Shown here: in pieces, positions 15,831 to 60,368 of the stretch | Numbering within the stretch: the stretch's first letter is position 1 | Layout of the letters: each line of letters starts with the position of its first letter | NCBI GenBank assembly: GCA_044351885.1 | Contig: JBILEW010000004.1 | Location: 10,155 to 74,154, forward strand | Direction: 5' to 3' | DNA length: 64,000 nt | From: Bdellovibrionota bacterium | GTDB taxonomy: Bacteria; Bdellovibrionota_C; UBA2361; OMII01 | The notes under the pieces: model-generated | Seen by the model: the letters and a program-made list of their open reading frames with translations, nothing else | Database searches by the model: none | Told to the model about the DNA's origin: nothing | Position numbers and translations under genes: made by a program

Positions 15831-15844
15831 TAGTAGGGAGTCTT

Positions 15845-17821: not shown

Positions 17822-17833
17822 AGGATAGGGAAG

Positions 17834-28885: not shown

Positions 28886-31800
28886 TCACACAAACGCATC
28901 GGTCGTAGTTGTTCCTTTGGCTTCCGAGGCAGAGCTTTGGGCGATCTCGCAGATCCTGCTGACCACTCCAGCGATAGACAGAACCTGATTGGCCAAAGAT
29001 GTCACGAGCGCTGCCGCTTCGTCGAACTTGTCCTGCTTGCACAGGCTCTCGACAGTCGAAGCCAGCTTACCTGAAGTTACCGCACCTACATCCAGGAGTA
29101 GCCCCTTGAGAGCATGGGCGGCGGACTTCAGCTCGCCTAAATCCCTCTCGGTCTTGGCACGGGTCAGATCAGCTAGCGGACCCTTGAACGACGAATCAAA
29201 CGCCTTAAGAATCAGAATTGTTCTACGCACTGATTCTCCGGAGCGCACGAAGACGTCGGCGATATCGAATATCTGAGTGAATGATACCTCGTCATCGAGG
29301 ACTTCGAAATCAGCCATACTTGTTTCTGCCCTAAGCTGCTTCCACGCCCGAAACGCTGTGTCCTGCAGTTGTGCCACTTCAGGGCATAGCTCAGGTTCGT
29401 CATAGGTCCGAACGTGGTCTAGGCGATCGGAACCCGCCGGTCGTTCACCTTTTTGCCATACGGCGCCTCCATGTGTCGTCAGCACCCGCGCCAGCTCGGT
29501 CGGCTGAATCGGTTTAGTGACCACATCGTCCACTCCACATCTTCTCATGTTATCGATCTCGTCCGTCATCGCGTGCGCAGTCACGGCGATTACTGGGATG
29601 TGAGAGCCTCGCCCCGAAGATAGTTCGAGTTCACGGATTCTTTGCGTTGCAGTGATTCCGTCCATCAAGGGCATCTGTATATCGGTAAGTACGATGTCGA
29701 AACCTTTCGAGGAGGACTCTCCATCGATCTGGCCTTTGAGAGATGCAAGGAGGTCCAGCCCATTCTCGACACATGTAACGTGGTGCCCAGCCTCCTGAAG
29801 CATGCTCGAAAGGATGATTCGATTAGTTTCAGCATCATCGGCTATTAAGACCCGCAACGCACGAGATGCCACGAGTGTGGCTTCATCGTCGTTGCTCCAG
29901 CTCTCTTCGTCTATCTGCAACTGTCCTGCCACGACAAGCAGGATGTCTTCCAGAGAAATTGGGCGCATGAGCACATGCGGAACACCCAGAGCCGTCAATC
30001 TCTCCCTGACGGCTATATCGTAGGTCGGTACGAGGACGGCCAGTGGCACTAATTTACGTGTAGCCGCGTCCACAACAAGGTTGAATACATGCGATCGCTT
30101 GATCGCCTCCGATGTCACGATAAGGAGACCGAAGTCATTGAGATGAGCTGCCAGGTTCTGTAGCTGGGAAGACTCTGCAGAGTTCACGACGAGGCTTTCG
30201 ATCCCGTATCTTCCGAAGGTTTCATGCATCGTCTTCACTGCGAACGAATCTCCATCGACGATAGCTGCTCGTCGGGGAGAGAAAGCGATCTCAGGCTCCT
30301 GCCACTTCGGGTCTGCTACCGTGGGCAGGAGTACGGCAAGGGTAAATTCGGTTCCCTTGCCGACCTCGCTCGTGACCTCTACGCTTCCCCTCATCTGCTC
30401 GACGAGTTGCTTTACGATGGTGAGACCAAGCCCTGTTCCAGTAAACACACGCGCCACAGAGTCGTCTGCTTGAGTGAATGGATCGAAGATGCGAGGGAGT
30501 CGCTCTGCAGGGATTCCGACTCCGGAATCCGCAACCGAGATGACAAGCTTGTGGTGTTCTCCCTCATGTCCGCCAGAATGCACGGTGAGCTTGACGAAGC
30601 CCTGGAGGGTAAACTTTATTGAATTGCCGAGAAGGTTTATGAGGCATTGCTTGAGTCGCAGTGGATCTCCGCAGAATCGATCAGGAGTGCCCGGGGTCAC
30701 GTCACAAACAAGCTCGACCTTTCCCTTCTCCTCCGCGCGCGGCGCGACCGTACGTAGTGATTCTCGTATGACATCACGAAGGCTAAAATCTATCTCTTCG
30801 AGGGAAAGGTTCCCCGTTTCCATCTTCGAGAAGTCTAGGATCTCGTTGATGGTATCGAGAAGGCTGAAGGCAGAATTTTTCGCCATCCCGATATAGGACC
30901 TCTTGGTCTTGGATGTCTCTTCCTTCATGAGAATTCGCAGCATTCCGACCACTCCGTGAATCGGTGTTCGGAGCTCGTGTGATACCTTGGCGATGAAGGT
31001 GGATTTAGCCTGGTTTGCGGCCTCTGCCTCGTCACGAGCCGTCTGCAGCTCGTGCTGTGTTCGAGCGAGGGTGTCTAACATCGAGTTGATCTGTTCTGCG
31101 AGAACTCCGAGCTCATCATGTCCAGTCACCGAGATCCGCTGCGTAGTGTCGCCTGTGAGCGAGATCGATCGTATCTGATCGACAGAAGAGCGGAGAGCCG
31201 CGATAATGACCCTGTGGACAACTAGAGCGGCCAGGAGTGTTGCTGCCAGGCTCAATAGCGTGAGAAAGAGAAGTAGTGTCGTCCGAGCGGCAAGACCCTG
31301 CATGTGCACGTAGCGTCGGAGCGTGACTTGGATCATCGCTGCTTGCTTTCCATCGACACCGGCCAGGATCCCACGGCCGATTATATTCTGATCGTCGATG
31401 ACTTCGAGCTTCGTGAAAGCAGAAGAGGCGGAATCGAGCGGAAAAATCCCGATGGTAAGCTTCGTCTGGCGTGATATATCATCGATCAGGGCTTGATCAA
31501 CCGACATGACGAACACAAAAGATCCTCGTGACGGCTTTGAGCGCTCGCTATCGAGGATCGGACTCCTCGTGACCATGATCACGCCATCCGGACCGCGCAG
31601 CAGACCAGATTCCAGTGCGGTGGAGCTTCCCGTGCGAATCGAAGGGATACCAGCACGCAGGATCTCTGAAAGTTCGTATGATAGTGGTTCGATGGATGAT
31701 AGCTGAGAATTTACCTCTTGGCCGAATATGAGATCTCCGTCCTGTGAGAAATATGCTACTGCTCTCATCCGCAGCGCTTGAAGTGTTTCGTAGTTCAGAT

Positions 31801-33052
31801 TCGTATCAATGTAATCCTTGTCTTTGCTCACTATGAAGTCGTAGGTGGCATCCCACTGCCCCCAGTCAGCGGTCTTTCCGAGGAGCTCTTGTGCGCGAGC
31901 ATGTAGCGCACGCTCAGCGCGCGTTACGTTATCTGCGAGGTTTTTGGTCTCGATCTCTTGGAAGGCACTCGTAAGGGAGGTTTCGAACACTATATACAGA
32001 AAGGCGCCCATCAGAATGAACGATGCAGACACGGTCACTAGTACGCGGACTTGTAGAGAACGGCGATAGGAGTTGGGATCTTGCAGACGGAGGTGAGAGT
32101 CCCCAGTTGCTGCGATCTGCTGGACGGTCCCCGAGAGTGTCGATAGTCGCGTCAAGACCTGCCGATCGATCAGCCACCACATGAACAGGAGCACGAAGAG
32201 TCCCGCTAGAGCCACCCCCAATACCGCCACGTTTCTTGCTCTCTCTGCGAGACGCGTTACTACGTTGTCGTCATTGAATTCGAACAGTATCGCGGGCTGC
32301 TGCGCGAAATCACGGATGAGGCCAAAGACTTGGGAGTTGCCATCGTCGGAGGCCACATGCACGAATTTCTCGCCCTCGTTGAGGCGGGTCAGTGCAAAAG
32401 ACGCCTGTGACGACGGTGTCTCCTGAGAAAAACGCCAAAAGCGCAGATCGAGGTTAGTCTGGTAGGACCATTCCTTGAAGAGAGAGTTGGTAACGAGGGA
32501 TGTGACCAACAGCATCCCACGCCCTGCCGAATCTCGTTTTGAGGGGAGGATCTCAGTGAATGCGTAGAGGACCGTTTCCCCGTTTATCTGGGCCAAGCCA
32601 CTACCGTCTTTGTTCTTCTCCTCAAGGTCTCGGTCCATGATGCTCTTGAGGACCGCGGCGGTATCATTCGGGGTCTTCTCGACCTTGCTCTCTGCTGCCA
32701 CAGTGTGGGCGCTTTGAACGAGCTCTCCCTTGCCGCTGAAGTAGAGAACGTCCCGAAATCCTAGGGTGGAGAGGGTCATGAAGTTGAGGTTCTCTTCGAC
32801 GTAGGTCTGATTCCTCGACTTCATGAATTCGAAGGTGTTGTCCCACTGCCCCCAGTCAACGACCTTTTTGTGAAGCACCTCGAGTTGATTGGTGAGGGCG
32901 TTCTGTACCCGTGTCACGTTGCGTTCAAATCGCTGTAGCTCGAGCTTCTTGAAGCTGTTCACGACAACCGTCTGTACAAGCACGACGAGCGCAGCGCACA
33001 GGAAAGCGATTGAGACGGATAGGCCCAAAACAACCCTTGTTCTAACTTTCAT
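28886..33052 (-). CDS. hybrid sensor histidine kinase: 2 x CHASE4-like, HAMP, HisKA, HATPase, pseudo-receiver, receiver, HPt
   Basis: VVDWGQWDNTFEFM and TADWGQWDATYDFI are duplicated CHASE4-type sensor signatures, each preceded by a TM helix. H-box SHELRTPIHGV. GTGLGLTIVKQL. Receiver VLTDIQMPLMDG. HPt SAAHALKGLLLDVGA. Confidence 0.9.
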   Translation of the reverse strand: MKVRTRVVLGLSVSIAFLCAALVVLVQTVVVNSFKKLELQRFERNVTRVQNALTNQLEVLHKKVVDWGQWDNTFEFMKSRNQTYVEENLNFMTLSTLGFRDVLYFSGKGELVQSAHTVAAESKVEKTPNDTAAVLKSIMDRDLEEKNKDGSGLAQINGETVLYAFTEILPSKRDSAGRGMLLVTSLVTNSLFKEWSYQTNLDLRFWRFSQETPSSQASFALTRLNEGEKFVHVASDDGNSQVFGLIRDFAQQPAILFEFNDDNVVTRLAERARNVAVLGVALAGLFVLLFMWWLIDRQVLTRLSTLSGTVQQIAATGDSHLRLQDPNSYRRSLQVRVLVTVSASFILMGAFLYIVFETSLTSAFQEIETKNLADNVTRAERALHARAQELLGKTADWGQWDATYDFIVSKDKDYIDTNLNYETLQALRMRAVAYFSQDGDLIFGQEVNSQLSSIEPLSYELSEILRAGIPSIRTGSSTALESGLLRGPDGVIMVTRSPILDSERSKPSRGSFVFVMSVDQALIDDISRQTKLTIGIFPLDSASSAFTKLEVIDDQNIIGRGILAGVDGKQAAMIQVTLRRYVHMQGLAARTTLLLFLTLLSLAATLLAALVVHRVIIAALRSSVDQIRSISLTGDTTQRISVTGHDELGVLAEQINSMLDTLARTQHELQTARDEAEAANQAKSTFIAKVSHELRTPIHGVVGMLRILMKEETSKTKRSYIGMAKNSAFSLLDTINEILDFSKMETGNLSLEEIDFSLRDVIRESLRTVAPRAEEKGKVELVCDVTPGTPDRFCGDPLRLKQCLINLLGNSIKFTLQGFVKLTVHSGGHEGEHHKLVISVADSGVGIPAERLPRIFDPFTQADDSVARVFTGTGLGLTIVKQLVEQMRGSVEVTSEVGKGTEFTLAVLLPTVADPKWQEPEIAFSPRRAAIVDGDSFAVKTMHETFGRYGIESLVVNSAESSQLQNLAAHLNDFGLLIVTSEAIKRSHVFNLVVDAATRKLVPLAVLVPTYDIAVRERLTALGVPHVLMRPISLEDILLVVAGQLQIDEESWSNDDEATLVASRALRVLIADDAETNRIILSSMLQEAGHHVTCVENGLDLLASLKGQIDGESSSKGFDIVLTDIQMPLMDGITATQRIRELELSSGRGSHIPVIAVTAHAMTDEIDNMRRCGVDDVVTKPIQPTELARVLTTHGGAVWQKGERPAGSDRLDHVRTYDEPELCPEVAQLQDTAFRAWKQLRAETSMADFEVLDDEVSFTQIFDIADVFVRSGESVRRTILILKAFDSSFKGPLADLTRAKTERDLGELKSAAHALKGLLLDVGAVTSGKLASTVESLCKQDKFDEAAALVTSLANQVLSIAGVVSRICEIAQSSASEAKGTTTTDAFV

Positions 33053-33134: not shown

Positions 33135-33989
33135 TTAGGCGCTCACCTTCGTCGCAGAAACCATAACGATTCCAGGGATACCGACGTCTGGATCTTTTAT
33201 AATAAGGTCTTCGACTACTGGATTCGGAAGGCCCAACATGGGGAGAAGCTCTCTAAAATGATCTCCATAAAGCTCGGCGCATCTATATACATCAGGGGGG
33301 CCGTCAGGGCGCTTGACCTCATACTCTGTCATGCCCCGCAGAGCTGATATGAAGAGATGCCCTCCGGGTGCAATTGAGTCGCATACGTTCTTCATAACTG
33401 CCTTCCATCCGTCGAGGGTTTCGCCGACCTCTCCAGAGACAAAGAACATGCCGGTAATCGCATGAGGGGTCAGAGGAACCCTTGATGTGTTGACGATCGG
33501 CGACCTTAGAACATTGCAGGTATCAATAGATTCAATCTTACGACGCATCTCAGCAATTCGACTGGCGATATTTGCATCAGTAGGTTCAATACCTTCATTC
33601 CCGAGAGCCATAGCAATGTAGTGATTCCATGAGAAGGCATCGCTGGCTCCAGTCGCCCATCTGTGCGTCTCTTCCCGAGCCTCCTGGCGATAGTCAGTCG
33701 CGTAAAGCCTTGTCACCCATGGGGCAATCGAAATCATGTGGTGGACTCCCCCTTCGCCACTTATCTCTACGTAGTTGTCCCACGAGCGACCCAGGCGCCT
33801 TAGCTCATGATTGAGAAACTTGTTTATCGCGATCTCATCGATGCTAGGGGGGTCCTTGTAGTATGTATCAAGATAGAAGCGAGTGAAGCTGGTGAGCGCG
33901 TCGTATTCGTATGTCTGCTGGGGTGCCTCGGTAGGAATACCTTCTACGCGCGGAGAAGTTCTATCAGGTTGTGGCGATGTCATTAGCAA
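33135..33989 (-). CDS. SAM-dependent methyltransferase, NNMT/PNMT/TEMT-like
   Basis: FYLDTYYKD..., VEISGEGGVHHMI (motif I region), LYATDYRQEAREETHRWATGASDAFSWNHYI and GGHLFISAL. These parallel the NNMT-family pattern (DIGSGPT, SDy..Nr.El.kWL...DWS, GGhL). Confidence 0.5.
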   Translation of the reverse strand: MLMTSPQPDRTSPRVEGIPTEAPQQTYEYDALTSFTRFYLDTYYKDPPSIDEIAINKFLNHELRRLGRSWDNYVEISGEGGVHHMISIAPWVTRLYATDYRQEAREETHRWATGASDAFSWNHYIAMALGNEGIEPTDANIASRIAEMRRKIESIDTCNVLRSPIVNTSRVPLTPHAITGMFFVSGEVGETLDGWKAVMKNVCDSIAPGGHLFISALRGMTEYEVKRPDGPPDVYRCAELYGDHFRELLPMLGLPNPVVEDLIIKDPDVGIPGIVMVSATKVSA

Positions 33990-34080
33990 ATTCCCTAACT
34001 AAAGGTTGAAAAAACGGGAAAGCCTTTGTGGAAAGGCTTTCCCATTTTGAAGTTGATATAACCCTTCCCATAACCTCTTC

Positions 34081-34464
34081 TCATTTCTGGCTTGTCTCCA
34101 CTGCCTCTGGGGTAGCAGAGTGGGCTTTCTGAGGGGGGCCCGACAAGGGTCCCTTTACCAGGAAAAGGCCCACAAGGATGAAAGCCAATCCTGCGTACTG
34201 GATTCGGGTGAGATCTTCTCCTAGCACGAACACCGCGTACGCTAGGGTCAGGAGAGTGAGCAGGGAGTCCACGACTCCGGAAGCCACCCCCAGGCCAAAT
34301 TGAAGGCAGGCCCACCGAAACCCAAAAAACGCGACAACTGCCAGCACCGAGACGTATCCCATGTAATGGAACCGCCCCGGCTCAAGACTCTTCTCGGTCA
34401 ATATGTTCGCCCACACATAGGTGAGGGCGATCATCACGCAGAAGATTAGCGCTCGTGCGTCCAT
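34081..34464 (-). CDS. small 4-TM membrane protein, SMR/DMT-like transporter
   Basis: 127 aa with four hydrophobic helices. The C-terminus YAGLAFILVGLFLVKG is typical of EamA/SMR-type proteins. An AGGAG RBS is present. Confidence 0.4.
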   Translation of the reverse strand: MDARALIFCVMIALTYVWANILTEKSLEPGRFHYMGYVSVLAVVAFFGFRWACLQFGLGVASGVVDSLLTLLTLAYAVFVLGEDLTRIQYAGLAFILVGLFLVKGPLSGPPQKAHSATPEAVETSQK

Positions 34465-34777: not shown

Positions 34778-35188
34778 CTACTCCCGCCGCGACCGCTGCA
34801 TCACATCAGCGATCTTCATCTTCAGCAGCTTAAAGCTGATCGGCTTAACCATGTAATCGGCAGCTCCGAGATCAAGAGCGGTCTCTATGATTGGAGTGTC
34901 GCGGTTGCTGCTCAACATAATGACCGGAATGTCGGCGAGCTTGGGATAATCTTTGAGCGCTATCAAGAGATCGATGCCGTTCATGCCACGCATCGAATGG
35001 TCACAGATCACCAGTTTTGCGCCGGTTTCGAGCAGTTTGTCGAGAGCCTCCTTGCCGTCCGCTGCCACCTCGATGTCGGTGAACCCCATCTCCTGAAACA
35101 TGTCGGTCAGGAGCAATCGGGTTGATGGAAGATCGTCTACGATGAGTACCTGCGGCTCGCGCGAAGTGATCCCGTAACTGTTGTCCAT
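34778..35188 (-). CDS. single-domain CheY-like response regulator (paralogue of 28424-28825)
   Basis: LIVDD, LVICDHSMRGMNG and YMVKP. By eye it is identical to the other CheY-like protein at over half of the positions. Confidence 0.9.
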   Translation of the reverse strand: MDNSYGITSREPQVLIVDDLPSTRLLLTDMFQEMGFTDIEVAADGKEALDKLLETGAKLVICDHSMRGMNGIDLLIALKDYPKLADIPVIMLSSNRDTPIIETALDLGAADYMVKPISFKLLKMKIADVMQRSRRE

Positions 35189-37256: not shown

Positions 37257-40121
37257 TTACCGCGACTGTTGTGTTAGCCTGGAAAGGCGGACGTTAAAGG
37301 CATCCTGGAGCGGCTTCAAGTAGGTGGGGACCACTCGCGAGATGTCCTGCGACCAGGCTGGGTTGCGAGCACAGAGCTCCTCAAGAAGGCTGATAGCGTC
37401 ATCATAACGTCCCAGGTTAGTCAAAACCATGGCCGCGTGGATTGGCGCTTGATGCTTGAGATCCGCCGCAAGCAGACTCTCGGCATCTTGCTGATTCACG
37501 GGCTGACCAGCGTGAATGTCACCAAGAACACGGATCAACGTCGCGTCGTGCCTGTACGAAGGATCGTCCCTAAAAGACTCTCCTGTGTTCCTGATCTGGG
37601 GAGAGCTGACTCCTTGGAGCAAATTCAGCATGGCCTGCGCAATTTCGAATTCCGGAGTGCCTGCGAGGATCCGATTACCCGAAAGGACAGCGTTAGCTCT
37701 GGTAAGTGTCGCGAGGAGTTCCGGTCGTGAGGCGACGGGGACGGCTTGAGAGGCGTGCGCTACATCACGCACGAGAGAAAATACCTGGAATGCCAAATCG
37801 GAGTGCCCTACTCCCCCCATACGCGATTGCCCATATGCTGTAATAAGCGAGCTGAGAGCGGTGTGAAGATGCTTGTACCGAAGGGTCGAATCGTTGTTGT
37901 GAGAGGCGCGCAAATTGAGATGAGCGTTGATTATGTTCTCTAAAAGTCCTTCGGGATTAACCTCAAGTGCTCTCCTGGCCGCTACCATCGGTATTTGAAT
38001 CTCGGTCTGCTGTACGTCAGCAGGGCGCCCCTGCCACGCGCGGAAGGCTACGAGGAGGGCTGTTGAGGCGTCACTACTGAAATACCTATTCCCGAAAACC
38101 GGAGGCTCGGTCTCAGGGTCGATTGTACGTTCGATCATGAACTGGACGTTGGTTACCATGTTCGGGACAGCACGCCTTTCGGGATCGCCGTCGATTTCAA
38201 CCCCGCACGCAGCGCATGCCCGGGCAATCATACGACACTCAGCGGCGAGTTGCTGCCTAACTTCAATCGGCAAAGTCGTATCCCACGGAAGCCTTCCCCC
38301 GAGGTCAGTCAACATGACACACAAGCTGTCTACAGCGATCGCCCCGGCTATCTTCTCCCGGTATTCTTGAGAGAAGTGAGCAGATGACATCATCTTCTCG
38401 AATTCGTCGATCCCGTCGTCTGTGAGTCCCTTTGGGAGTAGGCACTCTCGCGCCTTGAGCAGAAGCTCAGAGTCAAATTCAGCGAGCGCTCCAGGTGCCT
38501 TCCCCGAGATCGCGGCGGCATATCCCGCGGTCTCGAGATTTCGCATCTTCACGAGCATCGAACGGGCTTGGTGCTCTCGCTCGAGGGTGCCGAGTAATGT
38601 TTTCAATGTGTCGTTTTCGTGAATGTGGGTCTTAAGATCCTGTAACAGTTCGGGCCGCACAAGATTAACGGCCGCGTCGATATTTCCATTTTTTTCCGCT
38701 AGCTGAGCATCCTTCAACAGGCGCGCCGCGAGGTCCCGATCTCTTGCTATATCAGCTGCTAGAATCTCGCGGCGATTTTGTTTCTCGACAGCCGCTAGCC
38801 GCTCTTCCGCCGCACGGTTTTGTCGGTCTATCACGACCCATCCGGCACCTATCAGACCGGCACCCGCAGCGGCTATTCCGGCAGCTATCCTTGGGTTGAC
38901 CCTCACCCAGGTGAAACTGGCTACGGCCCCGACCTTGAAACGGTAGGCCCATTTTTGTGGAGTGGATAAGCTACTCGAAAAGGCCTGTACCTCCCGACCG
39001 TCAAGGAACGCTTCAAGATCTTCCTTAAATTCACGGGCATCTTTGTATCGTTCAAGAGGATCCCGCTGCAGCGCTTTGTGAATGATCGCAACCAATTCGG
39101 GTGGAAGGGCCGGATTGATAGAAAGAGGATCGCCATAGAGTGAAATAGGGTCGGCAGCATCCTTAATTTGACGCAAGATCTCTCCGGCCAAGGTACCATG
39201 GCACCTTTCGAAAGGTGCCTCGTTCAACACCAGATGACGCAGAATGAGACCCAGCTGATAAACATCTGTCCGTACCGTTACAGGACCACCTCCGGGTAGT
39301 TGGTCCGGCGAAGCGTAGCGTACTGTACCCCTGAAACCAGTTCCTTTTCCTTCGCTTTCCTGAGTGCCCTCTTGCGCGCTGAGACAGGGGTCGTTTAAGG
39401 AGCCTCCGCTACTTAAACCGAAATCGGTAACGAATACCTCTTTGTCTGTCGAGATCAAAATATTCGCTGGCTTCAAGTCGTGATGGATGATCGAGCGATC
39501 GTGTAGGTACGCTACGGCGTCGAGGGTTTCGAGAAAAAAGCGCATAAGCTGTTTGTCTCGGCCTCTCCATTGAACTTTGGTCACATCGTCTACTGCGGAG
39601 TCGAAGTATCTCTCGATCGCGGTCTCGAGAGTGGATGCATCCTTGACGAGGTCCATGACGAAATACGGGCGACCAGCTTCAGAAACACCGAAGCGATATA
39701 CTTTGACTAGGTTTTTGTGATTGAGAGCAGCGATGGCTTGCGCCTCTCCCTTGAAGCGAGCCGCTGCTGAGGGCGTAGGCGGTTCTTTCAGAACCTTGAT
39801 GGCTTGCTCTCTATTTAGAGTAATGTCCTTTGCAGAAACAACGAGCCCCATGCCTCCGTGTCCTATGAAGGTGATCGAGCTAGCTGAGAAAACCTCTTGA
39901 ATAGCTGCAGTCTGCCGGAGATCGTCTAGTATATCTGCGCTGGTTGCCCCCCTCGAAGGTAGCGGCAGAGGCCGTCGCAGCTGCGTGTTCGGCAAAGACA
40001 TATCGAAGTCCTGCACTTCTAGGTCTTCGGGCCGGACCCCTTCCATTGAAAGATCTGTGCGGGTTGCCTCATGGCTCGATCGATCACCATTTACTGATGA
40101 GGAACTGTCGGGGCTTGGCAT
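37257..40121 (-). CDS. Hanks-type Ser/Thr protein kinase with TM segment and large helical C-terminal domain
   Basis: GHGGMGLV (G-loop), AIKVLK, HHDLKPANILI and DFGLS. TM segment IAAGIAAAGAGLIGAGWVVI. About 500 aa of helical repeats follow. Confidence 0.9.
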   Translation of the reverse strand: MPSPDSSSSVNGDRSSHEATRTDLSMEGVRPEDLEVQDFDMSLPNTQLRRPLPLPSRGATSADILDDLRQTAAIQEVFSASSITFIGHGGMGLVVSAKDITLNREQAIKVLKEPPTPSAAARFKGEAQAIAALNHKNLVKVYRFGVSEAGRPYFVMDLVKDASTLETAIERYFDSAVDDVTKVQWRGRDKQLMRFFLETLDAVAYLHDRSIIHHDLKPANILISTDKEVFVTDFGLSSGGSLNDPCLSAQEGTQESEGKGTGFRGTVRYASPDQLPGGGPVTVRTDVYQLGLILRHLVLNEAPFERCHGTLAGEILRQIKDAADPISLYGDPLSINPALPPELVAIIHKALQRDPLERYKDAREFKEDLEAFLDGREVQAFSSSLSTPQKWAYRFKVGAVASFTWVRVNPRIAAGIAAAGAGLIGAGWVVIDRQNRAAEERLAAVEKQNRREILAADIARDRDLAARLLKDAQLAEKNGNIDAAVNLVRPELLQDLKTHIHENDTLKTLLGTLEREHQARSMLVKMRNLETAGYAAAISGKAPGALAEFDSELLLKARECLLPKGLTDDGIDEFEKMMSSAHFSQEYREKIAGAIAVDSLCVMLTDLGGRLPWDTTLPIEVRQQLAAECRMIARACAACGVEIDGDPERRAVPNMVTNVQFMIERTIDPETEPPVFGNRYFSSDASTALLVAFRAWQGRPADVQQTEIQIPMVAARRALEVNPEGLLENIINAHLNLRASHNNDSTLRYKHLHTALSSLITAYGQSRMGGVGHSDLAFQVFSLVRDVAHASQAVPVASRPELLATLTRANAVLSGNRILAGTPEFEIAQAMLNLLQGVSSPQIRNTGESFRDDPSYRHDATLIRVLGDIHAGQPVNQQDAESLLAADLKHQAPIHAAMVLTNLGRYDDAISLLEELCARNPAWSQDISRVVPTYLKPLQDAFNVRLSRLTQQSR

Positions 40122-40439
40122 GACGGAACGCGCTAGTTTTTTTGTTTTACTCAGATGTAGATATCACATTTGACGAAGCAAAGGAAAAAATGAGCGAAGC
40201 TAGGTATTGTCGCTGCAGAGCTAAAAATCGTATTGAATTTGGGTGGTTGGCGCTCGCGGCGTAATTTCTGAATCGTTGTCCTGCACAGCATTTACGAAAC
40301 CACAGCCGTCGGTACTAGGTAGTTTGGGTTTGGTATAGCGATATGCAGAGGTTGAAAAATCCGTGTTTGAAATGAGAGGGGTAAAGCAGGTAGCATCATT
40401 GCGCAGTAAGGTAAATTTCCGAGTTTATGTGGCGTTCTT

Positions 40440-43304
40440 ATGAATCAAGGCGGACCCGCGCAAAAGCAGTCTCCAGATCTGGATAAAACGATCCTCATGC
40501 CGCGTGATTCCGTGGATTTTGAGCCGGAGTTGGGATACTTCCGTTCGATGGGTACTGCTGACGGCGCGGTCCGTGTCATAAGGTGGGAGGATGTGACCAC
40601 TCGCCTCGCGATGTTGAGGCAGATCCTACCGAACGTCAGCTGCCTTTTTGATTTATCATCGGAGGCCGACCCCTTAGTAGTGGAGAGGTTGAGGGATCAA
40701 GGAGTTTCTTTCTCTGCGGCGGGAGCTGCCTATCTCGAAAGGATGCGTATTCTTGATGTTCCTTCATCACGGATCTCACTCACTGCTGCCGCCCCCTCGG
40801 GGGACGCGATGCACGCTGCTAAAGATGCTAAAGTACGAACTGTAAGTGTCGGAAGTCTCAGTGCCTTGCAGAGTCTGATTAAGGACGGGGCGGGGGGCTC
40901 TCAGGGGTGGCAACCTACGCTGCAAATCGTAGTGAAAATAACGGATGGACAGTCGCTGGTAAATCCTCGGAAGCTCGACGTAATACTGGATGAGGCTAAG
41001 CGAGCGGGTTTTTCATCTTTCGGATTATCGGTAGTCGCCGAAAAGGATTTGACGACTCCGGAAGAACGAAAGCGATTAATCGATGCCGTGAGTAGGGCAG
41101 CAAGTTCGTGTGCCCAACACCACGTCACAGTCGATTGCATTCAGATACTCGGAGGTCTCGCTGATCATCGCTCCCTCAGGCGGATGAATGTGGAGCTGCC
41201 CTCGTATCTTGAGGACCTGTCGCAGACGATAATCCGAGTCCAGGCCGCGATTCAGCAGGAGAATCCTAAGTCGCAGCCCCGAATCGAGGTCGAGGCAGGG
41301 CAGCTGCTTTTAGGCCATTTCCCGACGTGTGGAGTTATTACCAATGTCAAGAAGCAGCGCGGTGATGGCGTTCTCGAAGTATTCACATGCCTCTCAGTGT
41401 ACGGAGACCTCGCCGGGCATCTGTTCCATAAGGAACCCGTCTCAATCGAGGTTCTTTCCGATCCCGCCGGGAGCACGTCCCTGTCCAGTAGGCTCGTAGA
41501 TGCGGTTATTCATGGTGGTACGTGTGACTCTATCGACAGTCTGTATGATAGAAACGGCCGCCTCGTGCAGTTTGCGGTTCCGGAAAACTTGAGAGGTGGA
41601 TGTCTCCTTGTTGTGTATGGAAAGCGCTTGCATCATGGAGCCACTGACTTTAACCAGATCCCCCCTGCTCGAGTAGTCATTCATGACCGCTACGATGATA
41701 GGGAGCCGTACAAGTGCTCAGCACTGTCGGATTTTCAGGGTCCGCAATTTGAAGCGGCCAGGGAGTTTTGGGCAAGTGAAACGGCGCTGCGCCTGAAGAC
41801 TACTTTTCGGGAAACGAGGAGGAGGATAGACAACCGCCAGCCGGTCAACGGTAGACAGTTAGGCCAGTTGGTGACCGACACGAAGCTCCGACAGGAACGA
41901 TATCAGATGGTGGCGGGAGCTTTTCTCGAACGGTTCCCCTCGGCACAAGGCACGGTGACTCTCTTGGATCTTGAGACGTATGCGGTAGCCTTGCGCAACA
42001 CCGAGCGGTATGTGTGTGAAGTGACAGTCGATGGATACTCAGGAGTCGATGAAGTCTTTTGGCCCACCAAGACCTTCAGTGACCCGATAGGTCTTCTGTG
42101 CCAGGCAGCTACCGGTCGCGGAGTTGATGCAGCTTCGGCTGGCGAGATCTGGATGGCTATGCGGGCGGGCTTCAATCCGAAGAAGATGATAGTGTCGCAT
42201 CCGCACAAGACACCAGAGACGCTTCGAATGATCTGCGATCCTCGGTACGCTCCGTGGGCTGTTACAATCGACTCGGAGCAGGAGCTCGACCGACTGGTTG
42301 AGGCCGGACTTTCGAGGAACACGGTACTCTTCATTCGATACAAGGCGACTGGAGCGAACGTCGTAGCGAACCTGAGTGCGAAGTTTGGAATGCCTGTCGA
42401 GTCGGAGAGGGATAAGCAAAAGATCCTGCACCTTCTCGAGCTCGCCCACGACCGAGGGTTCAAAGAGTTCGGTTGGGCCTTCCATGTTGGTACACAAAGC
42501 CACGATAAGAATGATTACAGGAATGCTCTTAAAACGGCGCTCCAGTTGACCAAAATGGCTCTTGCGCTCCCTCGTCCGATAAAAGTGACGAATTTTAATA
42601 TCGGGGGAGGTGTATGTGACGAACGTGTGGCGCTCAAGAACTCGATCCCAGGTGAGGTCCCCCTGACGGCCAAGCGCGTCCTGGCGGGAGTTGGTGCGCA
42701 GGTTGCCGCCTGTCGTAAAACTGCGGAGCGGCTAGTAGGTGCGCCTGTTCGGTTTATAGCCGAACCAGGCCGAGTCACGTGCGCTTTGGCGGGCTTCATG
42801 ATGTCGCAGGTTGTGGCGGGTCGAGAGGCAGACTTCACCGGAGCGCGGATCTGTTTAGCGACATCCCATCAGCAAATCTTGTCGGGTAATGTACATGATG
42901 AGTCTTATTATGATCTTCTCTCTGTCAGGCAAGCTGGAGGAGGAGATGTCGTGCGTTATCAAGTATGCGGAAGCTCGAATCGTCCCGATGATATCTTTCC
43001 GTCGATAGCGCCAGACGGCATGCATCTGCTCCCAGCAGATCTACGTGCTGGTGATTGGCTCATGGCCCCCGAAGCGGGGATTGCCTATGGCTGGAATGCT
43101 TCAGGCTCTATCGATGGGATCGATCCTGGAAGGTTCTTTGCTTTCTACTTTGATGATAACGGGTGTATCCAGTTCATCGAATCGCCGTGGTCGCGGCGCG
43201 AGCATGTGAAAAACCAGGATCTCAAGGAGTTCATTGCACGTCATGGGTCGGCAAGCGCCCCTGTTTCCCAGCGTAGGATATTCCCGATCGATCAAGCTAC
43301 GTAG
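40440..43304 (+). CDS. tandem fusion of two Orn/DAP/Arg-decarboxylase-fold (fold-type III PLP) modules
   Basis: C-terminal half: PTKTFSDP (PLP Lys), VDAASAGEI, FHVGTQS, FNIGGGV and AEPGR. N-terminal half: the same layout with degenerate motifs (SSEADP, LSVVAEKD, VEAGQ), but it retains HGGTCDSID. Confidence 0.75.
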   Translation: MNQGGPAQKQSPDLDKTILMPRDSVDFEPELGYFRSMGTADGAVRVIRWEDVTTRLAMLRQILPNVSCLFDLSSEADPLVVERLRDQGVSFSAAGAAYLERMRILDVPSSRISLTAAAPSGDAMHAAKDAKVRTVSVGSLSALQSLIKDGAGGSQGWQPTLQIVVKITDGQSLVNPRKLDVILDEAKRAGFSSFGLSVVAEKDLTTPEERKRLIDAVSRAASSCAQHHVTVDCIQILGGLADHRSLRRMNVELPSYLEDLSQTIIRVQAAIQQENPKSQPRIEVEAGQLLLGHFPTCGVITNVKKQRGDGVLEVFTCLSVYGDLAGHLFHKEPVSIEVLSDPAGSTSLSSRLVDAVIHGGTCDSIDSLYDRNGRLVQFAVPENLRGGCLLVVYGKRLHHGATDFNQIPPARVVIHDRYDDREPYKCSALSDFQGPQFEAAREFWASETALRLKTTFRETRRRIDNRQPVNGRQLGQLVTDTKLRQERYQMVAGAFLERFPSAQGTVTLLDLETYAVALRNTERYVCEVTVDGYSGVDEVFWPTKTFSDPIGLLCQAATGRGVDAASAGEIWMAMRAGFNPKKMIVSHPHKTPETLRMICDPRYAPWAVTIDSEQELDRLVEAGLSRNTVLFIRYKATGANVVANLSAKFGMPVESERDKQKILHLLELAHDRGFKEFGWAFHVGTQSHDKNDYRNALKTALQLTKMALALPRPIKVTNFNIGGGVCDERVALKNSIPGEVPLTAKRVLAGVGAQVAACRKTAERLVGAPVRFIAEPGRVTCALAGFMMSQVVAGREADFTGARICLATSHQQILSGNVHDESYYDLLSVRQAGGGDVVRYQVCGSSNRPDDIFPSIAPDGMHLLPADLRAGDWLMAPEAGIAYGWNASGSIDGIDPGRFFAFYFDDNGCIQFIESPWSRREHVKNQDLKEFIARHGSASAPVSQRRIFPIDQAT

Positions 43305-43423: not shown

Positions 43424-44017
43424 ATGACAGATGATGAGAACACAAACAACCGTGCCGTCAAGAGTGAGACGCCAGAAGGTGTCATGATGAGACGTGCCTT
43501 TGATGCGGCGCAAGCTCCGACTATGGATGGTCCTCGCGTGCTGGCACAGTTAGTGAGTAAGGCGTGGGAACGGCTCGAGCATAAAATAGCATTCGATCCG
43601 GGCAGGCAAAAGCGAACTCCTGGGTCTGCAAGTGAGGAGATGCTCGATCTGACGGACCTCTATCACCGGATGGGTGACTCCACTACTCGAGTTGGCTTGA
43701 TACTAAACGCATTCTCAGCGTGCTTTCATGAGCAATATATCCAACTGATGGACTCTGAGGAGATCGGAGATTCGAAGTCTATCGAAGCAGCAGCTCACGC
43801 CGTGAAAGGGCTCCTGCTCGAGGTGGGGGCGAGGCAGCCCGCCATCCTCGCTGCGAATATCGAGCAGATGTGCCAGGCCGGTCAAGCTGCGGAAGCTCTA
43901 AAGCTGATACCGATTCTCGGCGATCAGGTCATCCTGACTGCGCGCTTGGTGAAGCACACCGTTGCAGCGCTGCATGTTGAGGAAGAGCCGCTTCAGATTG
44001 TGCAAGGGCCTGCCTAG
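43424..44017 (+). CDS. stand-alone HPt phosphotransfer protein
   Basis: AAAHAVKGLLLEVGA is an HPt His motif, similar to the HPt at the C-terminus of the hybrid kinase. Confidence 0.75.
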   Translation: MTDDENTNNRAVKSETPEGVMMRRAFDAAQAPTMDGPRVLAQLVSKAWERLEHKIAFDPGRQKRTPGSASEEMLDLTDLYHRMGDSTTRVGLILNAFSACFHEQYIQLMDSEEIGDSKSIEAAAHAVKGLLLEVGARQPAILAANIEQMCQAGQAAEALKLIPILGDQVILTARLVKHTVAALHVEEEPLQIVQGPA

Positions 44018-44149: not shown

Positions 44150-45061
44150 CTAGGTGTCAAAGCTTTCTTTACACCCTTGGAAGTGCTGGATGACTGTTTC
44201 GAGGAACGAAGAGCCCCCCGTTCCATCGAAGTTCAACGACAGGCCTAATCCTGTGGCGAGGCAGCTTATTTCTTCGGCATCACATGGGTATCCCTGTAGG
44301 CTCCCTATGCCTGAGTGGTGACAGAGCAGCTCTGCGAGTTGCACAGCTGCAATCCTCGCTTCGTGTGCATCGTCGAGCGGGAAATCGATTGGGTCTCTAT
44401 AGTGTAGGATCGCACGTACCACGGAGGGTGGCAGATCCCATTTCTTGGCTACTAGGGCGCCGACATACGTGTGCGTTACGCCGAATACTCGTCGCTCTGC
44501 TTCGAGGAACTCTACCCCAGTCGTACTGATGACATCGAGCACCCGCTCGAACAGAGCTACTCTGGCAGGTTCCGTAAGTAATACCAACTGCCCCAAATTG
44601 TGAAGGAGTCCGAAGATGAAGACTTCACCGGGGCTCTGCATTTTGAGCTTCGTAGCAATCCGATATGCGCACAGCCCGGTAAAGAGCGAGCGTTGCCAGA
44701 TCATCGAACGCAGCTCTTCGTTGGCTGCTGTCAGTCCTTGAAGCATTGAGGCAGCGATGATTCCCTGCAGCCCACGGGTGCCGATCACCATGAATGCTTG
44801 AGATAACGTTGAGATCTGTCTTTGTCTCAAAAAGACAGGTGAGTTAGCTACTCGCAAGATACGAGCGGTCAGGGCAGGGTCCTGACCGATTACCTCTTCC
44901 AGCAGCTCCAACGACACGTGCGGTTGGTTAAGAATCGCCATCGCGCGAGAAGCACATGGTGGAAGTGGCGGTAGGTTGCCGACCCAGGCAACGATCTCCT
45001 TGAGAAGAGCGTAATCCAGTCCTTCGGGGTTCGGTATCAAGTTCAATACAGAATGTTCCAT
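44150..45061 (-). CDS. HDOD domain protein
   Basis: LPPLPPCASRAMAIL...EVIGQDPALTARILRVANSPVF...ISTLSQAFMVIGTRGL...GLLHNLGQLVL. Confidence 0.85.
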   Translation of the reverse strand: MEHSVLNLIPNPEGLDYALLKEIVAWVGNLPPLPPCASRAMAILNQPHVSLELLEEVIGQDPALTARILRVANSPVFLRQRQISTLSQAFMVIGTRGLQGIIAASMLQGLTAANEELRSMIWQRSLFTGLCAYRIATKLKMQSPGEVFIFGLLHNLGQLVLLTEPARVALFERVLDVISTTGVEFLEAERRVFGVTHTYVGALVAKKWDLPPSVVRAILHYRDPIDFPLDDAHEARIAAVQLAELLCHHSGIGSLQGYPCDAEEISCLATGLGLSLNFDGTGGSSFLETVIQHFQGCKESFDT

Positions 45062-45269: not shown

Positions 45270-45884
45270 CTACGTGGAACATGCACGAACAGCGTACTCT
45301 ATATGATGCTGCAAATTCGAAACGCTCAAAGGCTTCACTAGGCACGAGGAGACGCCTAACTGTTTCGCCTCAGTAACGTGCTCAAGTTCGGGTGTATTAG
45401 TCACCAGAATAAATGGCATGTGCTTCGTGTCTGCATTCGCTCGAACGGAGTGTAGCAGGTCGAGACCGGATCCATCCCTAAGATTCAAGTCGCTTATAAT
45501 AACTTGTATGCAGGCCGTGCGCATGATTCGCGCGGCATCGGCAAGGTTGGTCGCGATGAATATCTGTTTTGCGGGTATGCCGATAGACCTCAATATCGTG
45601 TGTGCAACATGGCAACTTGGTATCACATCGTCGACGATGAGGAATGAGAGAAGCTCTAAGTACACATCCAACGGTAGCGCATTCCGTACTGTTGTACCGC
45701 CTTCTTTTGGGGTCGAGATAGCGCGTGCTTCGGAAGCCACAGGTCTGTCGAAGAGAGAGGATCTGTGTTGTGCTGGAGGCTCTGTGGGGTCGCTACTATT
45801 GCTAAGCGCTGACCATGGAAGTGGACAAAATGAGCCCTGAGCTGGCGCGTCTTTTCCTTTGCGCGTTCCTTTTCTTTCGCTCAT
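45270..45884 (-). CDS. response regulator receiver protein with ~85-aa low-complexity N-terminal extension
   Basis: FLIVDDV, VIISDLNLRDGSG and CLVKP. Confidence 0.8.
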   Translation of the reverse strand: MSERKGTRKGKDAPAQGSFCPLPWSALSNSSDPTEPPAQHRSSLFDRPVASEARAISTPKEGGTTVRNALPLDVYLELLSFLIVDDVIPSCHVAHTILRSIGIPAKQIFIATNLADAARIMRTACIQVIISDLNLRDGSGLDLLHSVRANADTKHMPFILVTNTPELEHVTEAKQLGVSSCLVKPLSVSNLQHHIEYAVRACST

Positions 45885-55196: not shown

Positions 55197-55233
55197 AGAG
55201 TCCTATTTCGTGTGCGGGAAATCTACGACTTTC

Positions 55234-57342: not shown

Positions 57343-57543
57343 AATTTCCCCATGAGTAAAGGAGCGGCAGCAGGATACCCTTTTGATTGGCGGGCTTAAA
57401 CCCCTAGGTGCTCGATCTTGGCAAGCGGTGGCGCGTTTTTGTGGGAAATTCCCCGTCAAACAAGGGCTCTCAGAAGGCCGTATTGGTTTCGGATGACGGT
57501 AATCTTCGTTTTTGAAACGAGGCCAAGTATGGTAAGAATCTAG

Positions 57544-58947
<1,404 letters not shown>

Positions 58948-58962
58948 GGGAGGACGCATTCT

Positions 58963-60359: not shown

Positions 60360-60368
60360 CGTTGCACT

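Follow-up and report, generated by a model that had tools for sequence, protein, structure and literature searches.

How can an active site that is normally built between two identical subunits be assembled when two diverged copies of the subunit are carried on a single polypeptide? The question is raised by one gene in the 64-kb window analysed here (the window being the whole stretch of DNA, 64,000 nucleotides), whose product an initial annotation had described as two covalently fused copies of an ODC-type decarboxylase with exactly one composite active site. That the ODC active site crosses the subunit boundary was established with engineered K69A/C360A heterodimers. Lys69 and Cys360 of one site come from opposite subunits (PMC3289617), and in the PheB397/TyrA389 cradle Tyr389 is contributed by chain A and Phe397 by chain B (PMC11912471). 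An obligate head-to-tail homodimer with two equivalent sites is the norm for the family, a norm from which the fused decarboxylase departs in that its halves are non-equivalent.

Results

Two decarboxylase units on one chain

The gene and its parts are laid out as follows.

40440..43304, plus strand: candidate gene for a fused, pseudo-dimeric PLP decarboxylase of fold type III; uninterrupted ORF of 954 aa with two PF02784 matches
40566..41729, plus strand: N-half (aa ~43-430), predicted dead barrel with intact beta-domain, putative donor of trans residues; neutral profile E 9e-35
41730..41939, plus strand: helical linker between the halves (aa ~431-500, ~70 aa); helices in the AlphaFold2 (AF2) model, outside both profile matches
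41940..43301, plus strand: C-half (aa ~501-954), PLP barrel predicted to be catalytically competent, trans loop degenerate; neutral profile E 9e-69

The start codon is ambiguous, since either the ATG at 40440 (954 aa) or that at 40497 (M20; 935 aa) could serve, and public gene calls use both. The initial claim that the decarboxylase layout occurs twice in the 954-aa product is borne out by two kinds of profile. PF02784, the TIM-barrel PLP-binding domain, matches the N-half alone with E 7e-7 and the C-half with E 8e-26, both above the 23.4-bit cut-off, and a neutral profile made from single-domain relatives and human ODC also matches both, in the N-half over model positions 25-405 and with an E-value that speaks against this half being unrelated to the decarboxylase fold. 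PF00278, the C-terminal beta-sheet domain, matches the C-half only, at 17.5 bits and thus below its cut-off of 23; the neutral-profile alignment covers the beta-domain of both halves. Aligned with each other by hhalign, the halves are in register over 424 columns (E 2.5e-6). These sequence comparisons confirm two full-length ODC-subgroup fold-type III decarboxylase units on one chain.

AF2 folds the whole chain as one compact body (pLDDT 88.3, pTM 0.90); an earlier model from 8 sequences had been only moderate (pLDDT 67). The ~70-aa linker, which is conserved, is well ordered in the model, with helices at 434-444, 447-464, 474-478 and 481-498 and pLDDT 82-96. Compared with crystal structures of the ODC subgroup the model halves reach a TM of up to 0.89, with 0.87-0.89 for whole ODC chains. 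Among solved structures those of Lys/Orn, Orn and Arg decarboxylases come closest, rather than that of DAPDC, and the structure of AZIN (PDB 3btn) is among the matches. Profiles of the N-half and of the C-half find the same top single-domain relatives, which have complete catalytic sets, and both halves descend from this one single-domain subfamily.

Distribution and annotation of the fused family

The fused family is rare. A survey of its distribution found about 20 clusters in all, with 18 full-length fused homologues and with the fusion in ~18 divergent clusters from independent samples; the closest genomes are Bdellovibrionota MAGs. JGI and NCBI both name the proteins 'diaminopimelate decarboxylase', and TIGR01048 is the top NCBIfam match, which would favour an ordinary diaminopimelate decarboxylase (LysA), or else two adjacent genes run together through a mistake in sequencing or assembly. 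We find this explanation scarcely credible. The closest structures are those named above, and neither the 64-kb window nor the related loci contain dap or lys genes. LysA identity was rejected on this absence of dap/lys neighbours, on the ODC-like CDSxD trans loop and on the TIGR01048 score itself, 78.6 bits where the cut-off is 297.9, and from the C-half only; single-domain relatives fall likewise far under this cut-off. The two-gene join was rejected because the same fused ORF recurs in ~18 divergent clusters, and recurrence in independent samples rules out an artefact. The systematic misannotation of the family as 'diaminopimelate decarboxylase' is thereby corrected.

Partition of active-site residues between the halves

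The residues on which the argument turns are encoded at the following positions.

41400..41402, plus strand: Y321 (= ODC Y323); Tyr in 18/18 N-halves and 0/18 C-halves
41511..41537, plus strand: HGGTCDSID loop with C362, D363 and D366 (= ODC C360, D361 and D364), predicted trans catalytic and substrate-binding loop; C and D in 18/18 N-halves
41649..41654, plus strand: F404-N405 (= ODC F397-N398), predicted trans wall of the substrate channel; 18/18 N-halves, with I891-D892 in the window C-half
42069..42071, plus strand: K544 (= ODC K69), predicted PLP Schiff-base lysine; from alignment to K69, invariant
42966..42992, plus strand: degenerate C-half loop CGSSNRPDD, with N847-R848 replacing the Cys-Asp of GxxCDxxD; from alignment of halves and homologues

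All the motifs quoted in the initial annotation are found, once each, in the half to which they had been assigned. The N-half has SSEADP (73-78), LSVVAEKD (196-203), VEAGQ (284-288) and HGGTCDSID (358-366), and the C-half PTKTFSDP (542-549), FHVGTQS (681-687), NIGGGV (720-725), (A)EPGR (774-778) and CGSSNRPDD (843-851). Residues were then counted, under the numbers of their ODC equivalents, in an alignment of the 18 fused proteins, which are 19-61% identical. In the C-halves the cis residues D88, E94, H197, GGG, E274, R277 and D332 are present in 18/18, and R154 and Y389 in 17/18; K69 is also tabulated at 17/18, the eighteenth protein (P0016) having a lysine motif, CIAQKAQNDP, just beyond the alignment slice. 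The N-halves have K69, D88, E94 and Y389 in 0/18 and H197 in 2/18. For the trans residues the pattern is reversed, with Y323, C360, D361, F397 and N398 each in 18/18 N-halves, and with C360 and Y323 in none of the 18 C-halves, as had been proposed for the Cys loop from the intact HGGTCDSID and the degenerate CGSSNRPDD.

The same division is seen in the window protein. Its C-half holds the cis set K544, D563, E569, R633, H682, G722-724, E775, R778, D820 and Y883; in its N-half K69 is replaced by S73, D88 by S, E94 by Y, H197 by V and Y389 by R396, and R154, R277 and D332 are also replaced. The claim that the N-half has lost the barrel motifs thus holds for Lys, His and Arg but not for the GG of the glycine loop or the Glu of EPGR (the E274 equivalent), which alone of the cis set remain. 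The N-half keeps the trans residues Y321, C362, D363, D366, F404 and N405. The window C-half has lost the GxxCDxxD loop and F397/N398 except for the equivalent of D364 (D851), and within the core clade this loop is conserved as GSSNRxxD. The interface residues D364 and G387 are largely retained in both halves. The split also extends to residues that had not been remarked on before, Y883 being confined to the C-half and Y321 and F404-N405 to the N-half.

This partition of cis and trans residues is far beyond chance, and neither half has a full catalytic set. Because the cis residues are in the C-half and the trans residues in the N-half, one composite site and one dead site would be expected, and on the 18-protein comparison we consider it very likely that the protein is a natural single-chain pseudo-heterodimer of this kind, with the C-half providing the Lys/PLP barrel and the N-half the Cys loop, as initially suggested. 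The weight of the individual residues is not the same. In ODC, C360 is not strictly needed for decarboxylation, so its loss from the C-halves is weaker evidence than the loss of the lysine from the N-halves.

Laboratory ODC heterodimers (Lys69->Ala/Cys360->Ala) likewise combine one subunit without the lysine and another without the trans cysteine. However, these are engineered, non-covalent and statistically mixed, whereas the fused family is natural and covalent, has been fixed in evolution and has many more complementary losses. In E. histolytica ODC a heterodimer of K57A and C334A has one functional site and regains partial activity (PMC3289617, where the classic mouse and T. brucei mutant heterodimers are also cited). 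The fused family would thus be a natural counterpart of the engineered heterodimers, its partition conserved down to ~20% identity.

Could the composite site instead form between chains, the N-half of one pairing with the C-half of another, so that domain swapping yields a dimer, or a larger assembly, in which each dimer has two sites? The residue partition is silent on whether the N-half loops and the C-half barrel share one chain, and some fold-type III decarboxylases are higher oligomers, e.g. the SpeA tetramers. On the other hand, the single chain is folded as one confident body at the pTM given above, the helical linker is conserved and well ordered, and fusion would bring little gain if pairing were intermolecular. 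We therefore regard pairing between chains as unlikely, and suppose that the two halves of a single chain pair with each other head-to-tail.

A second possibility is that the N-half gives no catalytic residues and is a pseudoenzyme that serves only for regulation or as a scaffold, with an allosteric effect on the activity or stability of the C-half, the site being completed otherwise, e.g. between two C-halves. AZIN, an ODC pseudoenzyme, has antizyme as its binding partner and not ODC. The trypanosomatid prozymes of AdoMetDC (PMC5201418) and deoxyhypusine synthase (PMC3663545) provide examples of polyamine enzymes activated by a dead paralogue, and the N-half shares with these and with AZIN that it is a dead paralogue of a polyamine-pathway enzyme; like a prozyme, it is paired with an active copy. 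Moreover, its barrel has a conservation of its own, 14/18 N-halves having His at the E94 position and 15-16/18 keeping the phosphate-loop GG. Yet the only invariant N-half residues among the 18 proteins are Y321, C362, D363, F404 and N405, all of them trans active-site residues, and a site between two C-halves would be without C360 and D361 and usually without F397/N398. Prozymes are encoded by separate genes, have other folds and act allosterically without giving catalytic residues, whereas the dead copy of the present family is part of a fusion, adopts the ODC fold and seems to contribute such residues. A purely regulatory N-half thus seems quite improbable to us. A regulatory role of the dead pocket is compatible with the one-site pseudo-dimer and is no replacement for it.

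How could such a protein have arisen? The comparisons indicate that a single-domain homodimeric ancestor underwent tandem duplication and fusion, and that complementary loss followed, the C-half keeping the PLP barrel and the cis set and the N-half keeping the residues donated to a partner. The single composite site would then consist of the C-half barrel and the N-half loops, and the reciprocal site (N-half barrel and C-half loop) would be catalytically dead and possibly repurposed. The fused decarboxylase is presumably catalytically active. Since both distal-amine ligands are retained, D820 (= D332) and D363 (= D361), and since the closest structures are Lys/Orn, Orn and Arg decarboxylases, the comparisons point to a basic amino acid as substrate and to a product of the di- or polyamine type.

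Gene neighbourhood and its conservation

The genes around the fused decarboxylase, in order along the window, are the following.

28886..33052, minus strand: CHASE4(x2)-HAMP-HisKA-HATPase-REC-HPt hybrid histidine kinase, 1388 aa, 4 TM, from domain matches and the TM pattern
33135..33989, minus strand: NNMT/PNMT/TEMT-family small-molecule N-methyltransferase, 284 aa; PF01234 E 4e-19
34081..34464, minus strand: small EamA/SMR-like membrane protein, 127 aa, 4 TM, candidate amine exporter; PF00892 E 1.4e-7
34778..35188, minus strand: stand-alone response-regulator receiver, 136 aa; 87% identical in L008
35360..36292, plus strand: conserved protein with no assigned function, 310 aa; 45-70% identical in L008 and L010
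36588..37244, plus strand: small secreted protein, 218 aa, with Cys and with 16-aa repeats rich in Pro/Thr/Val; 59% identical in L008
37257..40121, minus strand: receptor-type Ser/Thr kinase, 954 aa; Pkinase E 5e-34
40122..40439, no strand: divergent intergenic region of 318 bp common to the kinase and decarboxylase genes, which are head-to-head in 9 loci
43424..44017, plus strand: HPt-like phosphotransfer protein, 197 aa; Hpt E 4e-4, conserved in L001, L008 and L018
44150..45061, minus strand: HDOD-domain protein, 303 aa; conserved in L001 and the P0002 locus
45270..45884, minus strand: response-regulator receiver protein, 204 aa; also kept in L008 and L018

The Ser/Thr kinase and HPt-like neighbours are as first described. 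The kinase has an N-terminal kinase domain, one TM helix (~412-432) and a large C-terminal non-cytoplasmic domain with a weak TPR signal. The HPt-like protein is 35-39% identical to the hybrid histidine kinase's own HPt domain; no terminator was found between its gene and that of the decarboxylase, and the two are probably co-transcribed. The 318-bp intergenic region contains no Rfam match, no inverted repeat and one promoter-like site that is no better than chance. For the N-methyltransferase the best PDB matches are INMT, NNMT and PNMT, and the best NCBIfam match is GntF N-methyltransferase at 39 bits against a cut-off of 60. The EamA/SMR-like protein has a weak likeness to the MdtJ/MdtI spermidine-efflux proteins, below the curated cut-offs. 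Pfam and NCBIfam searches with the 310-aa protein gave no match, and the L015 locus has a secreted protein analogous to the one listed.

The 64-kb window is devoid of genes for the lysine or polyamine pathways, the fused decarboxylase is never found in an operon of either kind, and the initial description of a signalling island rather than a polyamine or lysine operon turns out to be an understatement, as the tie to signalling kinases is conserved across the fused family. A receptor Ser/Thr kinase adjoins the fused decarboxylase in 10 of the 11 informative loci, and beside distant fused decarboxylases the alignment of kinase orthologues spans the TM and coiled region. The CHASE4 hybrid histidine kinase occurs in 8 loci, including the most divergent ones, where the decarboxylases are 19-23% identical and the CHASE4 kinases 31-38%. 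An N-methyltransferase is found in 6 fused loci and beside a single-domain relative. This relative, P0022, is adjoined by kinase, methyltransferase and EamA genes, its EamA homologue being 44% identical, and these partners already stood beside the single-domain ancestor. The methyltransferase, EamA and CHASE4 genes are absent from view in some loci, several contigs being short, and L016 has none of them.

Such tight and ancient linkage to two signalling kinases, together with several loci that are without biosynthetic pathway context, might suggest that the protein is in vivo a ligand sensor and not an enzyme, a module that binds an amino acid or an amine and signals this to the Ser/Thr kinase and the CHASE4 histidine kinase. 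Against this, the complete catalytic set of the composite site is under strict purifying selection down to 19% identity, and the N-methyltransferase and exporter-like protein conserved along with the decarboxylase point to a small molecule as product. Moreover, a scan of the 954-aa sequence found no hydrophobic segment, and the protein is therefore cytoplasmic. We consider a pure sensor very improbable.

Discussion

More generally, the linkage to membrane signalling kinases suggests that an amine signal is made by the fused decarboxylase, rather than that it is a housekeeping enzyme. As its most likely role we propose, only tentatively, that of synthase of an amine signal, probably an N-methylated one. 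In such a module the decarboxylase would carry out the first step and the adjacent NNMT/PNMT-type methyltransferase would N-methylate the amine, for which the small EamA/SMR-like protein would be the exporter. Sensing or control would fall to the CHASE4 hybrid histidine kinase, together with HPt and REC partners, and to the divergently transcribed receptor Ser/Thr kinase. The kinases could also regulate the decarboxylase instead of sensing its product. Taken as a whole, the one-site pseudo-dimer with a role in an amine-signal module is probably the best explanation of the locus.

A further step, which we put forward as a speculation that may well prove wrong, is an unrecognised amine signalling system. 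A lineage-specific N-methylated di- or polyamine would result from the successive action of the decarboxylase and of a methyltransferase of the NNMT/PNMT type, itself variable, would leave the cell through the EamA/SMR-like protein, and would be sensed by the double-CHASE4 histidine kinase (via the 197-aa HPt protein and REC) and/or by the Ser/Thr kinase ectodomain, with the dead N-half pocket as a regulatory input, e.g. for feedback or kinase control. We found no literature link of CHASE4 to amines and no reported CHASE4 ligand. The system makes concrete the hypothesis of a methylated amine as signal in these bacteria, and, if true, it would provide a first candidate ligand class for CHASE4 and, for predatory or related bacteria, an autoinducer chemistry that is new.

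Linkage of synthase and sensor across lineages, as in pairs of autoinducer synthase and sensor kinase, is seen here in the gene order. In CqsA/CqsS of Vibrio and LqsA/LqsS of Legionella a PLP autoinducer synthase stands beside a hybrid histidine-kinase receptor, CqsA, which synthesises alpha-hydroxyketones, being an acyl-CoA transferase of fold type I. As in those systems, a PLP-enzyme gene is genetically linked to that of a membrane hybrid histidine kinase, which has phosphorelay partners of the HPt/REC kind. However, the fused family differs in its fold-type III enzyme and in the additional N-methyltransferase, CHASE4 sensor and receptor Ser/Thr kinase.

At the level of the enzyme, the homodimeric members of the ODC subgroup (eukaryotic ODC, bacterial Lys/Orn decarboxylase and the PBCV-1 arginine decarboxylase) have the same two-domain fold as each half, the same cis barrel and trans beta-domain-loop residues and both distal-amine Asp residues. 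They consist, however, of two identical chains with two sites, whereas the fused family would combine diverged copies in one chain with one site. It would be a clear natural example of the change from an obligate homodimer, in which two composite sites are formed, to a single-chain one-site enzyme with a freed, possibly regulatory pocket. In heterodimeric ABC exporters and CFTR, two homologous domains arranged head-to-tail likewise share two composite ATP sites, of which complementary degeneration has left the consensus site catalytic and the degenerate one non-catalytic and possibly regulatory; the likeness is one of evolutionary logic only, since fold and chemistry are unrelated to those of the fused decarboxylase.

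Two decarboxylase folds in one chain

Our analysis indicates that the open reading frame at 40440-43304 (+), which runs without interruption for 954 aa, encodes a decarboxylase fold twice over, as the initial annotation had claimed; each of the nine motif strings on which that claim was built occurs once in the protein, at the expected place. The Pfam PLP-binding barrel PF02784 matches the C-half (aa 538-780, E 8e-26) and also the N-half taken alone (aa 51-161, E 7e-7). Searches against solved structures match the C-half to Lys/Orn decarboxylase and ODCs at 3e-14 and below, and the N-half to PBCV-1 arginine decarboxylase (E 2.6e-5) over a stretch that begins at the Lys position and includes the HGGTCDSID loop. 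A neutral profile, made from seven single-domain relatives and human ODC, recovers the N-half at 9e-35 across model positions 25-405 and the C-half at 9e-69. In a direct comparison of the N-half profile with the C-half profile, hhalign pairs 424 columns in register (E 2.5e-6). Given these profile and half-against-half alignments, the N-half is a complete but diverged decarboxylase fold rather than an unrelated extension.

The start of the gene is ambiguous between ATG codons at 40440 and 40497, and public gene calls give both 954 aa and 935 aa. Residues 1-19 are weakly conserved, a conserved Met (MPRDS) stands at codon 20, and neither ATG has a clear Shine-Dalgarno sequence in front of it.

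Partition of the catalytic residues

We numbered both halves on human ODC, its reference sequence verified against PDB 2on3_A, and compiled the active-site residues of 18 fused proteins, which are 19-61% identical to the one encoded in the window. Residues are called cis if they act with PLP in their own ODC subunit and trans if they are donated by the partner subunit.

Active-site residues (human ODC numbering) in the halves of 18 fused proteins
K69, D88, E94, Y389: cis, with PLP; N-halves 0/18 each; C-halves 17-18/18
H197: cis; N-halves 2/18; C-halves 18/18
R154, G235-237, E274, R277, D332: cis; N-halves variable, not conserved; C-halves 17-18/18
Y323, C360, D361, F397, N398: trans; N-halves 18/18 each; C-halves C360 0/18, Y323 0/18, D361 at most 1/18, F397 and N398 mostly lost

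The catalytic residues are partitioned strictly into cis and trans sets between the halves, and this partition is conserved across the fused family. The single K69 gap among the C-halves belongs to P0016, whose CIAQKAQNDP lysine motif lies just beyond the slice used. In a MAFFT alignment of the 18 proteins, the only N-half residues invariant throughout are Y321, C362, D363, F404 and N405 of the window protein; the invariant C-half residues include K544, D563, E569, R633, H682, G722-724, E775, R778, H819, D820 and Y883. Complementary loss of active-site motifs, first read from the window protein, is thus borne out in the family, and full catalytic sets in both halves, the finding that would have spoken against it, are not present in these 18 proteins.

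The published cis/trans assignment for ODC agrees with this partition. The ODC pocket combines Lys69 of one subunit with Cys360 of the other (PMC3289617), Tyr389 (chain A) and Phe397 (chain B) form a cradle for the substrate, and Asp332 and Asp361 hold the distal amine (PMC11912471). When K→A and C→A mutants of ODC are mixed, activity returns to about 29%, owing to heterodimers in which one site works (PMC3289617); compared with that laboratory construct, the window protein is a natural, evolutionarily fixed equivalent. Moreover, the dimer-interface residues D364 and G387 are largely retained in N- and C-halves, as expected if an ODC-like interface persists.

Predicted structure and the probable composite site

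An AlphaFold2 model from an 8-sequence alignment was moderate (pLDDT 67, pTM 0.62, catalytic loops below 50) and is superseded by one from an 18-sequence alignment covering all 954 residues (pLDDT 88.3, pTM 0.90), in which the catalytic loops are confident and the inter-half linker (aa ~434-498) is ordered and helical. A pTM of 0.90 in a two-lobed chain means a confident prediction of how the halves are placed relative to each other, and together with the residue partition it suggests that they pack head-to-tail within one chain. The Foldseek neighbors of the halves are PBCV-1 ArgDC, S. ruminantium LDC, V. vulnificus L/ODC and T. brucei ODC (target-normalised TM 0.8-0.89); DAP decarboxylases rank lower than Arg, Lys and Orn decarboxylases.

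We consider it very likely that the protein is a single-chain enzyme with one composite active site. In such an enzyme K544 would bind one PLP, and C362, D363, F404, N405 and Y321 of the N-half would close the site. A basic amino acid would be the substrate, given that the protein retains each of the two Asp residues that bind the distal amine and that its closest structural matches act on Lys, Orn or Arg. The same site could also form between chains by domain swapping, which we regard as less likely in view of the confident model of the single chain. Alternatively, the N-half could be purely allosteric, "prozyme-like", which would leave unexplained why its sole invariant residues are active-site residues.

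In the composite-site enzyme the reciprocal pocket would be dead, because it is without Schiff base capability, the His and the phosphate-binding Tyr. It has a conservation of its own, with a His at the E94 position, a GG loop and GSSNRxxD in the core clade, so the dead pocket may have a regulatory use.

Distribution and origin

A word-indexed search of 5.8 billion proteins gave 8 clusters, all fused apart from truncated fragments, and an exhaustive profile search of 1.84 billion representatives gave 24 proteins at E < 1e-30, half of them (12/24) full-length two-domain representatives of 900-1083 aa. The nearest genomic matches are two Bdellovibrionota MAGs from Lake Mendota, from a scan of genome contigs in which only two partial Bdellovibrionota loci and some unrelated single-domain matches came up. 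A metagenome scan with the intermediate alignment as query added two further loci. Because the fusion recurs in many independent samples, a sequencing error joining two genes, which the initial annotation had named among the outcomes that would undo its reading, is ruled out.

None of the fused proteins or single-domain relatives reaches an NCBIfam equivalog cut-off. The public label "diaminopimelate decarboxylase" is unsupported; LysA identity is refuted on score, gene context and structural neighbors.

The N-half and C-half profiles have their best single-domain relatives in common, namely the unfused decarboxylases P0023, P0022, P0028 and P0027, which score 5e-74 to 2e-62 with the N-half profile and 3e-101 to 2e-81 with the C-half profile within a candidate set pre-selected by a C-half-dominated search. 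All four carry the complete canonical residue set. Common best relatives with complete sets point to descent of both halves from one single-domain subfamily by tandem duplication, which would have been followed by subfunctionalisation.

We also considered P0036, P0058, P0059 and P0061 as analogues and rejected them. These are eukaryote-type ODCs with two or three near-identical decarboxylase units, one of them with a long acidic low-complexity insert. Complementary loss is absent from P0058, P0059 and P0061, where every complete copy retains the Schiff-base Lys together with the trans Cys. Probably all four are recent tandem duplicates or merged gene models, unrelated to the subfunctionalised fusion.

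Gene neighborhood

Genes around the fused decarboxylase
28886-33052 (-): CHASE4x2-HAMP-HisKA-HATPase-REC-HPt hybrid kinase
33135-33989 (-): NNMT/PNMT/TEMT methyltransferase
34081-34464 (-): 4-TM EamA protein
34778-35188 (-): REC
35360-36292 (+): 310-aa protein without Pfam or NCBIfam match
36588-37244 (+): secreted repeat protein
37257-40121 (-): receptor Ser/Thr kinase
40440-43304 (+): fused decarboxylase
43424-44017 (+): HPt-like protein
44150-45061 (-): HDOD protein
45270-45884 (-): REC

The linkage of the fused decarboxylase to kinases, methyltransferase and EamA protein is conserved, and the Ser/Thr kinase and HPt-like protein named at the outset as its neighbors do adjoin it. A large kinase lies head-to-head with the decarboxylase in the window, in L018 and in the loci of P0002, P0004, P0005, P0012, P0017, P0024 and P0031; in the P0015 locus a kinase follows shortly downstream, beyond an EamA gene, and L016 (P0020) is the only informative locus without a Ser/Thr kinase. 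The kinases of distant loci align across the kinase domain, the transmembrane helix and then a coiled region, and are thus orthologous receptor-type kinases. The CHASE4 hybrid kinase occurs in the core loci, L012 and the P0012 locus, and it flanks the two most divergent decarboxylases (L014 and L017; 31-35% identity, 760-1200 aa). The P0023 neighborhood was left out of this comparison as its contig is short. Beyond the cluster, the 64-kb window contains further signalling genes and redox genes; we found none of a lysine or polyamine pathway anywhere in it. The intergenic region between the divergent kinase and decarboxylase genes, scanned for Rfam families, promoters and terminators, and repeats, gave nothing above chance.

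The best solved relatives of the methyltransferase are INMT, NNMT and PNMT, and its best NCBIfam match, below cut-off, is the guanitoxin N-methyltransferase GntF. The EamA protein weakly resembles MdtI and MdtJ, the spermidine-efflux SMR subunits. P0022, the closest of the single-domain relatives and one with a complete catalytic set, is flanked by a 1523-aa kinase-WD40 protein and by a PF01234 methyltransferase with a small EamA protein 44% identical to that of the window, surroundings that would make the kinase/decarboxylase/N-methyltransferase/EamA module older than the fusion. The P0022 module looks either ancestral or parallel to the fused-decarboxylase system, and its kinases are cytoplasmic rather than receptor-type.

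A working model

How could these genes act together? The most economical account of the conserved module is that the decarboxylase would make an amine, the methyltransferase would N-methylate it, the EamA protein would export the product, and the CHASE4 hybrid kinase (with the HPt-like and REC proteins) and/or the receptor Ser/Thr kinase would sense the amine or control its synthesis. We propose this role of signal synthase tentatively, with markedly less assurance than the architecture of the enzyme. If instead the fused protein were a non-catalytic sensor, its fully conserved catalytic set and its methyltransferase and exporter partners would be left unexplained.

Our survey of the searchable literature turned up neither a fused complementary-loss fold-type III decarboxylase or fold-III pseudo-dimer nor a kinase/decarboxylase/methyltransferase/EamA module, and nothing relevant to a CHASE4-amine link. 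Neither the fold nor the chemistry is new, and one-site pseudo-heterodimers are known as a concept; the apparent novelty lies in the natural single-chain form seen in this family and in its signalling context.

Further observations on the cluster and the window

In clusters that are well conserved elsewhere, variability is greatest in the methyltransferase and EamA genes (window 33135-34464 against L008 2771-4344 and L012 3372-4238 and 9057-9920). Between L008 and the window the methyltransferases are 23% and the EamA proteins 37% identical, with the EamA gene inverted, against 58-87% for the hybrid kinase, REC, Ser/Thr kinase and decarboxylase; L012 has two different PF01234 methyltransferases. 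This variability could reflect lineage diversification of the product's methylation pattern. The P0022 module (L021 801-11093, NCBI GCA_963204915.1, and L022) also contains an FHA-kinase and a small tyrosine-phosphatase-like protein.

In the catalytic loop of the partner kinase, HHD stands where HRD is usual (IIHHDLKPANIL), so that the protein is a non-RD kinase; its AIK lysine and DFG motif are intact. Convergent with the 3' end of its gene is that of the small secreted Cys-containing protein (36588-37244), whose C-terminal part consists of three 48-nt tandem repeats (16-aa, APEVTSAPYPTVAGTV-like; 37042-37187). With a 59% identical homologue in L008 and an analogous secreted Pro-rich protein at the same position in the distant locus L015 (605-1081), it is possibly a partner of the kinase ectodomain. 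The 310-aa protein has syntenic counterparts in L008 (70% identity) and L010 (45%), and the P0012 locus has a protein of similar size. The 197-aa HPt-like protein is paralogous to the HPt domain at the C-terminus of the CHASE4 kinase itself (residues ~1237-1367; 35-39% identity in L001, L008 and L018), with a further N-terminal part of ~100 aa; no terminator-like site was found between its gene and that of the decarboxylase.

Elsewhere in the window, a run of multihaem cytochrome-like protein genes (9463-23367) includes one with an N-terminal FHA domain (14157-15830), a 1246-aa cytochrome c7/LVIVD-repeat protein (19627-23367) and a 780-aa protein (10986-13328) in which a flavin oxidoreductase is joined to a 4Fe-4S dicluster domain and two cNMP-binding domains. 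Cyclic-nucleotide signalling is dense at 53751-62480, with an MscS-like channel bearing a cNMP-binding domain (53751-55196), a HAMP-adenylate/guanylate cyclase (55234-57627) and a CHASE2-cyclase (60369-62480), and amid these genes lies that of argininosuccinate synthase (57580-58947). In the P0012 locus a CHASE2 protein is encoded directly downstream of the fused decarboxylase.
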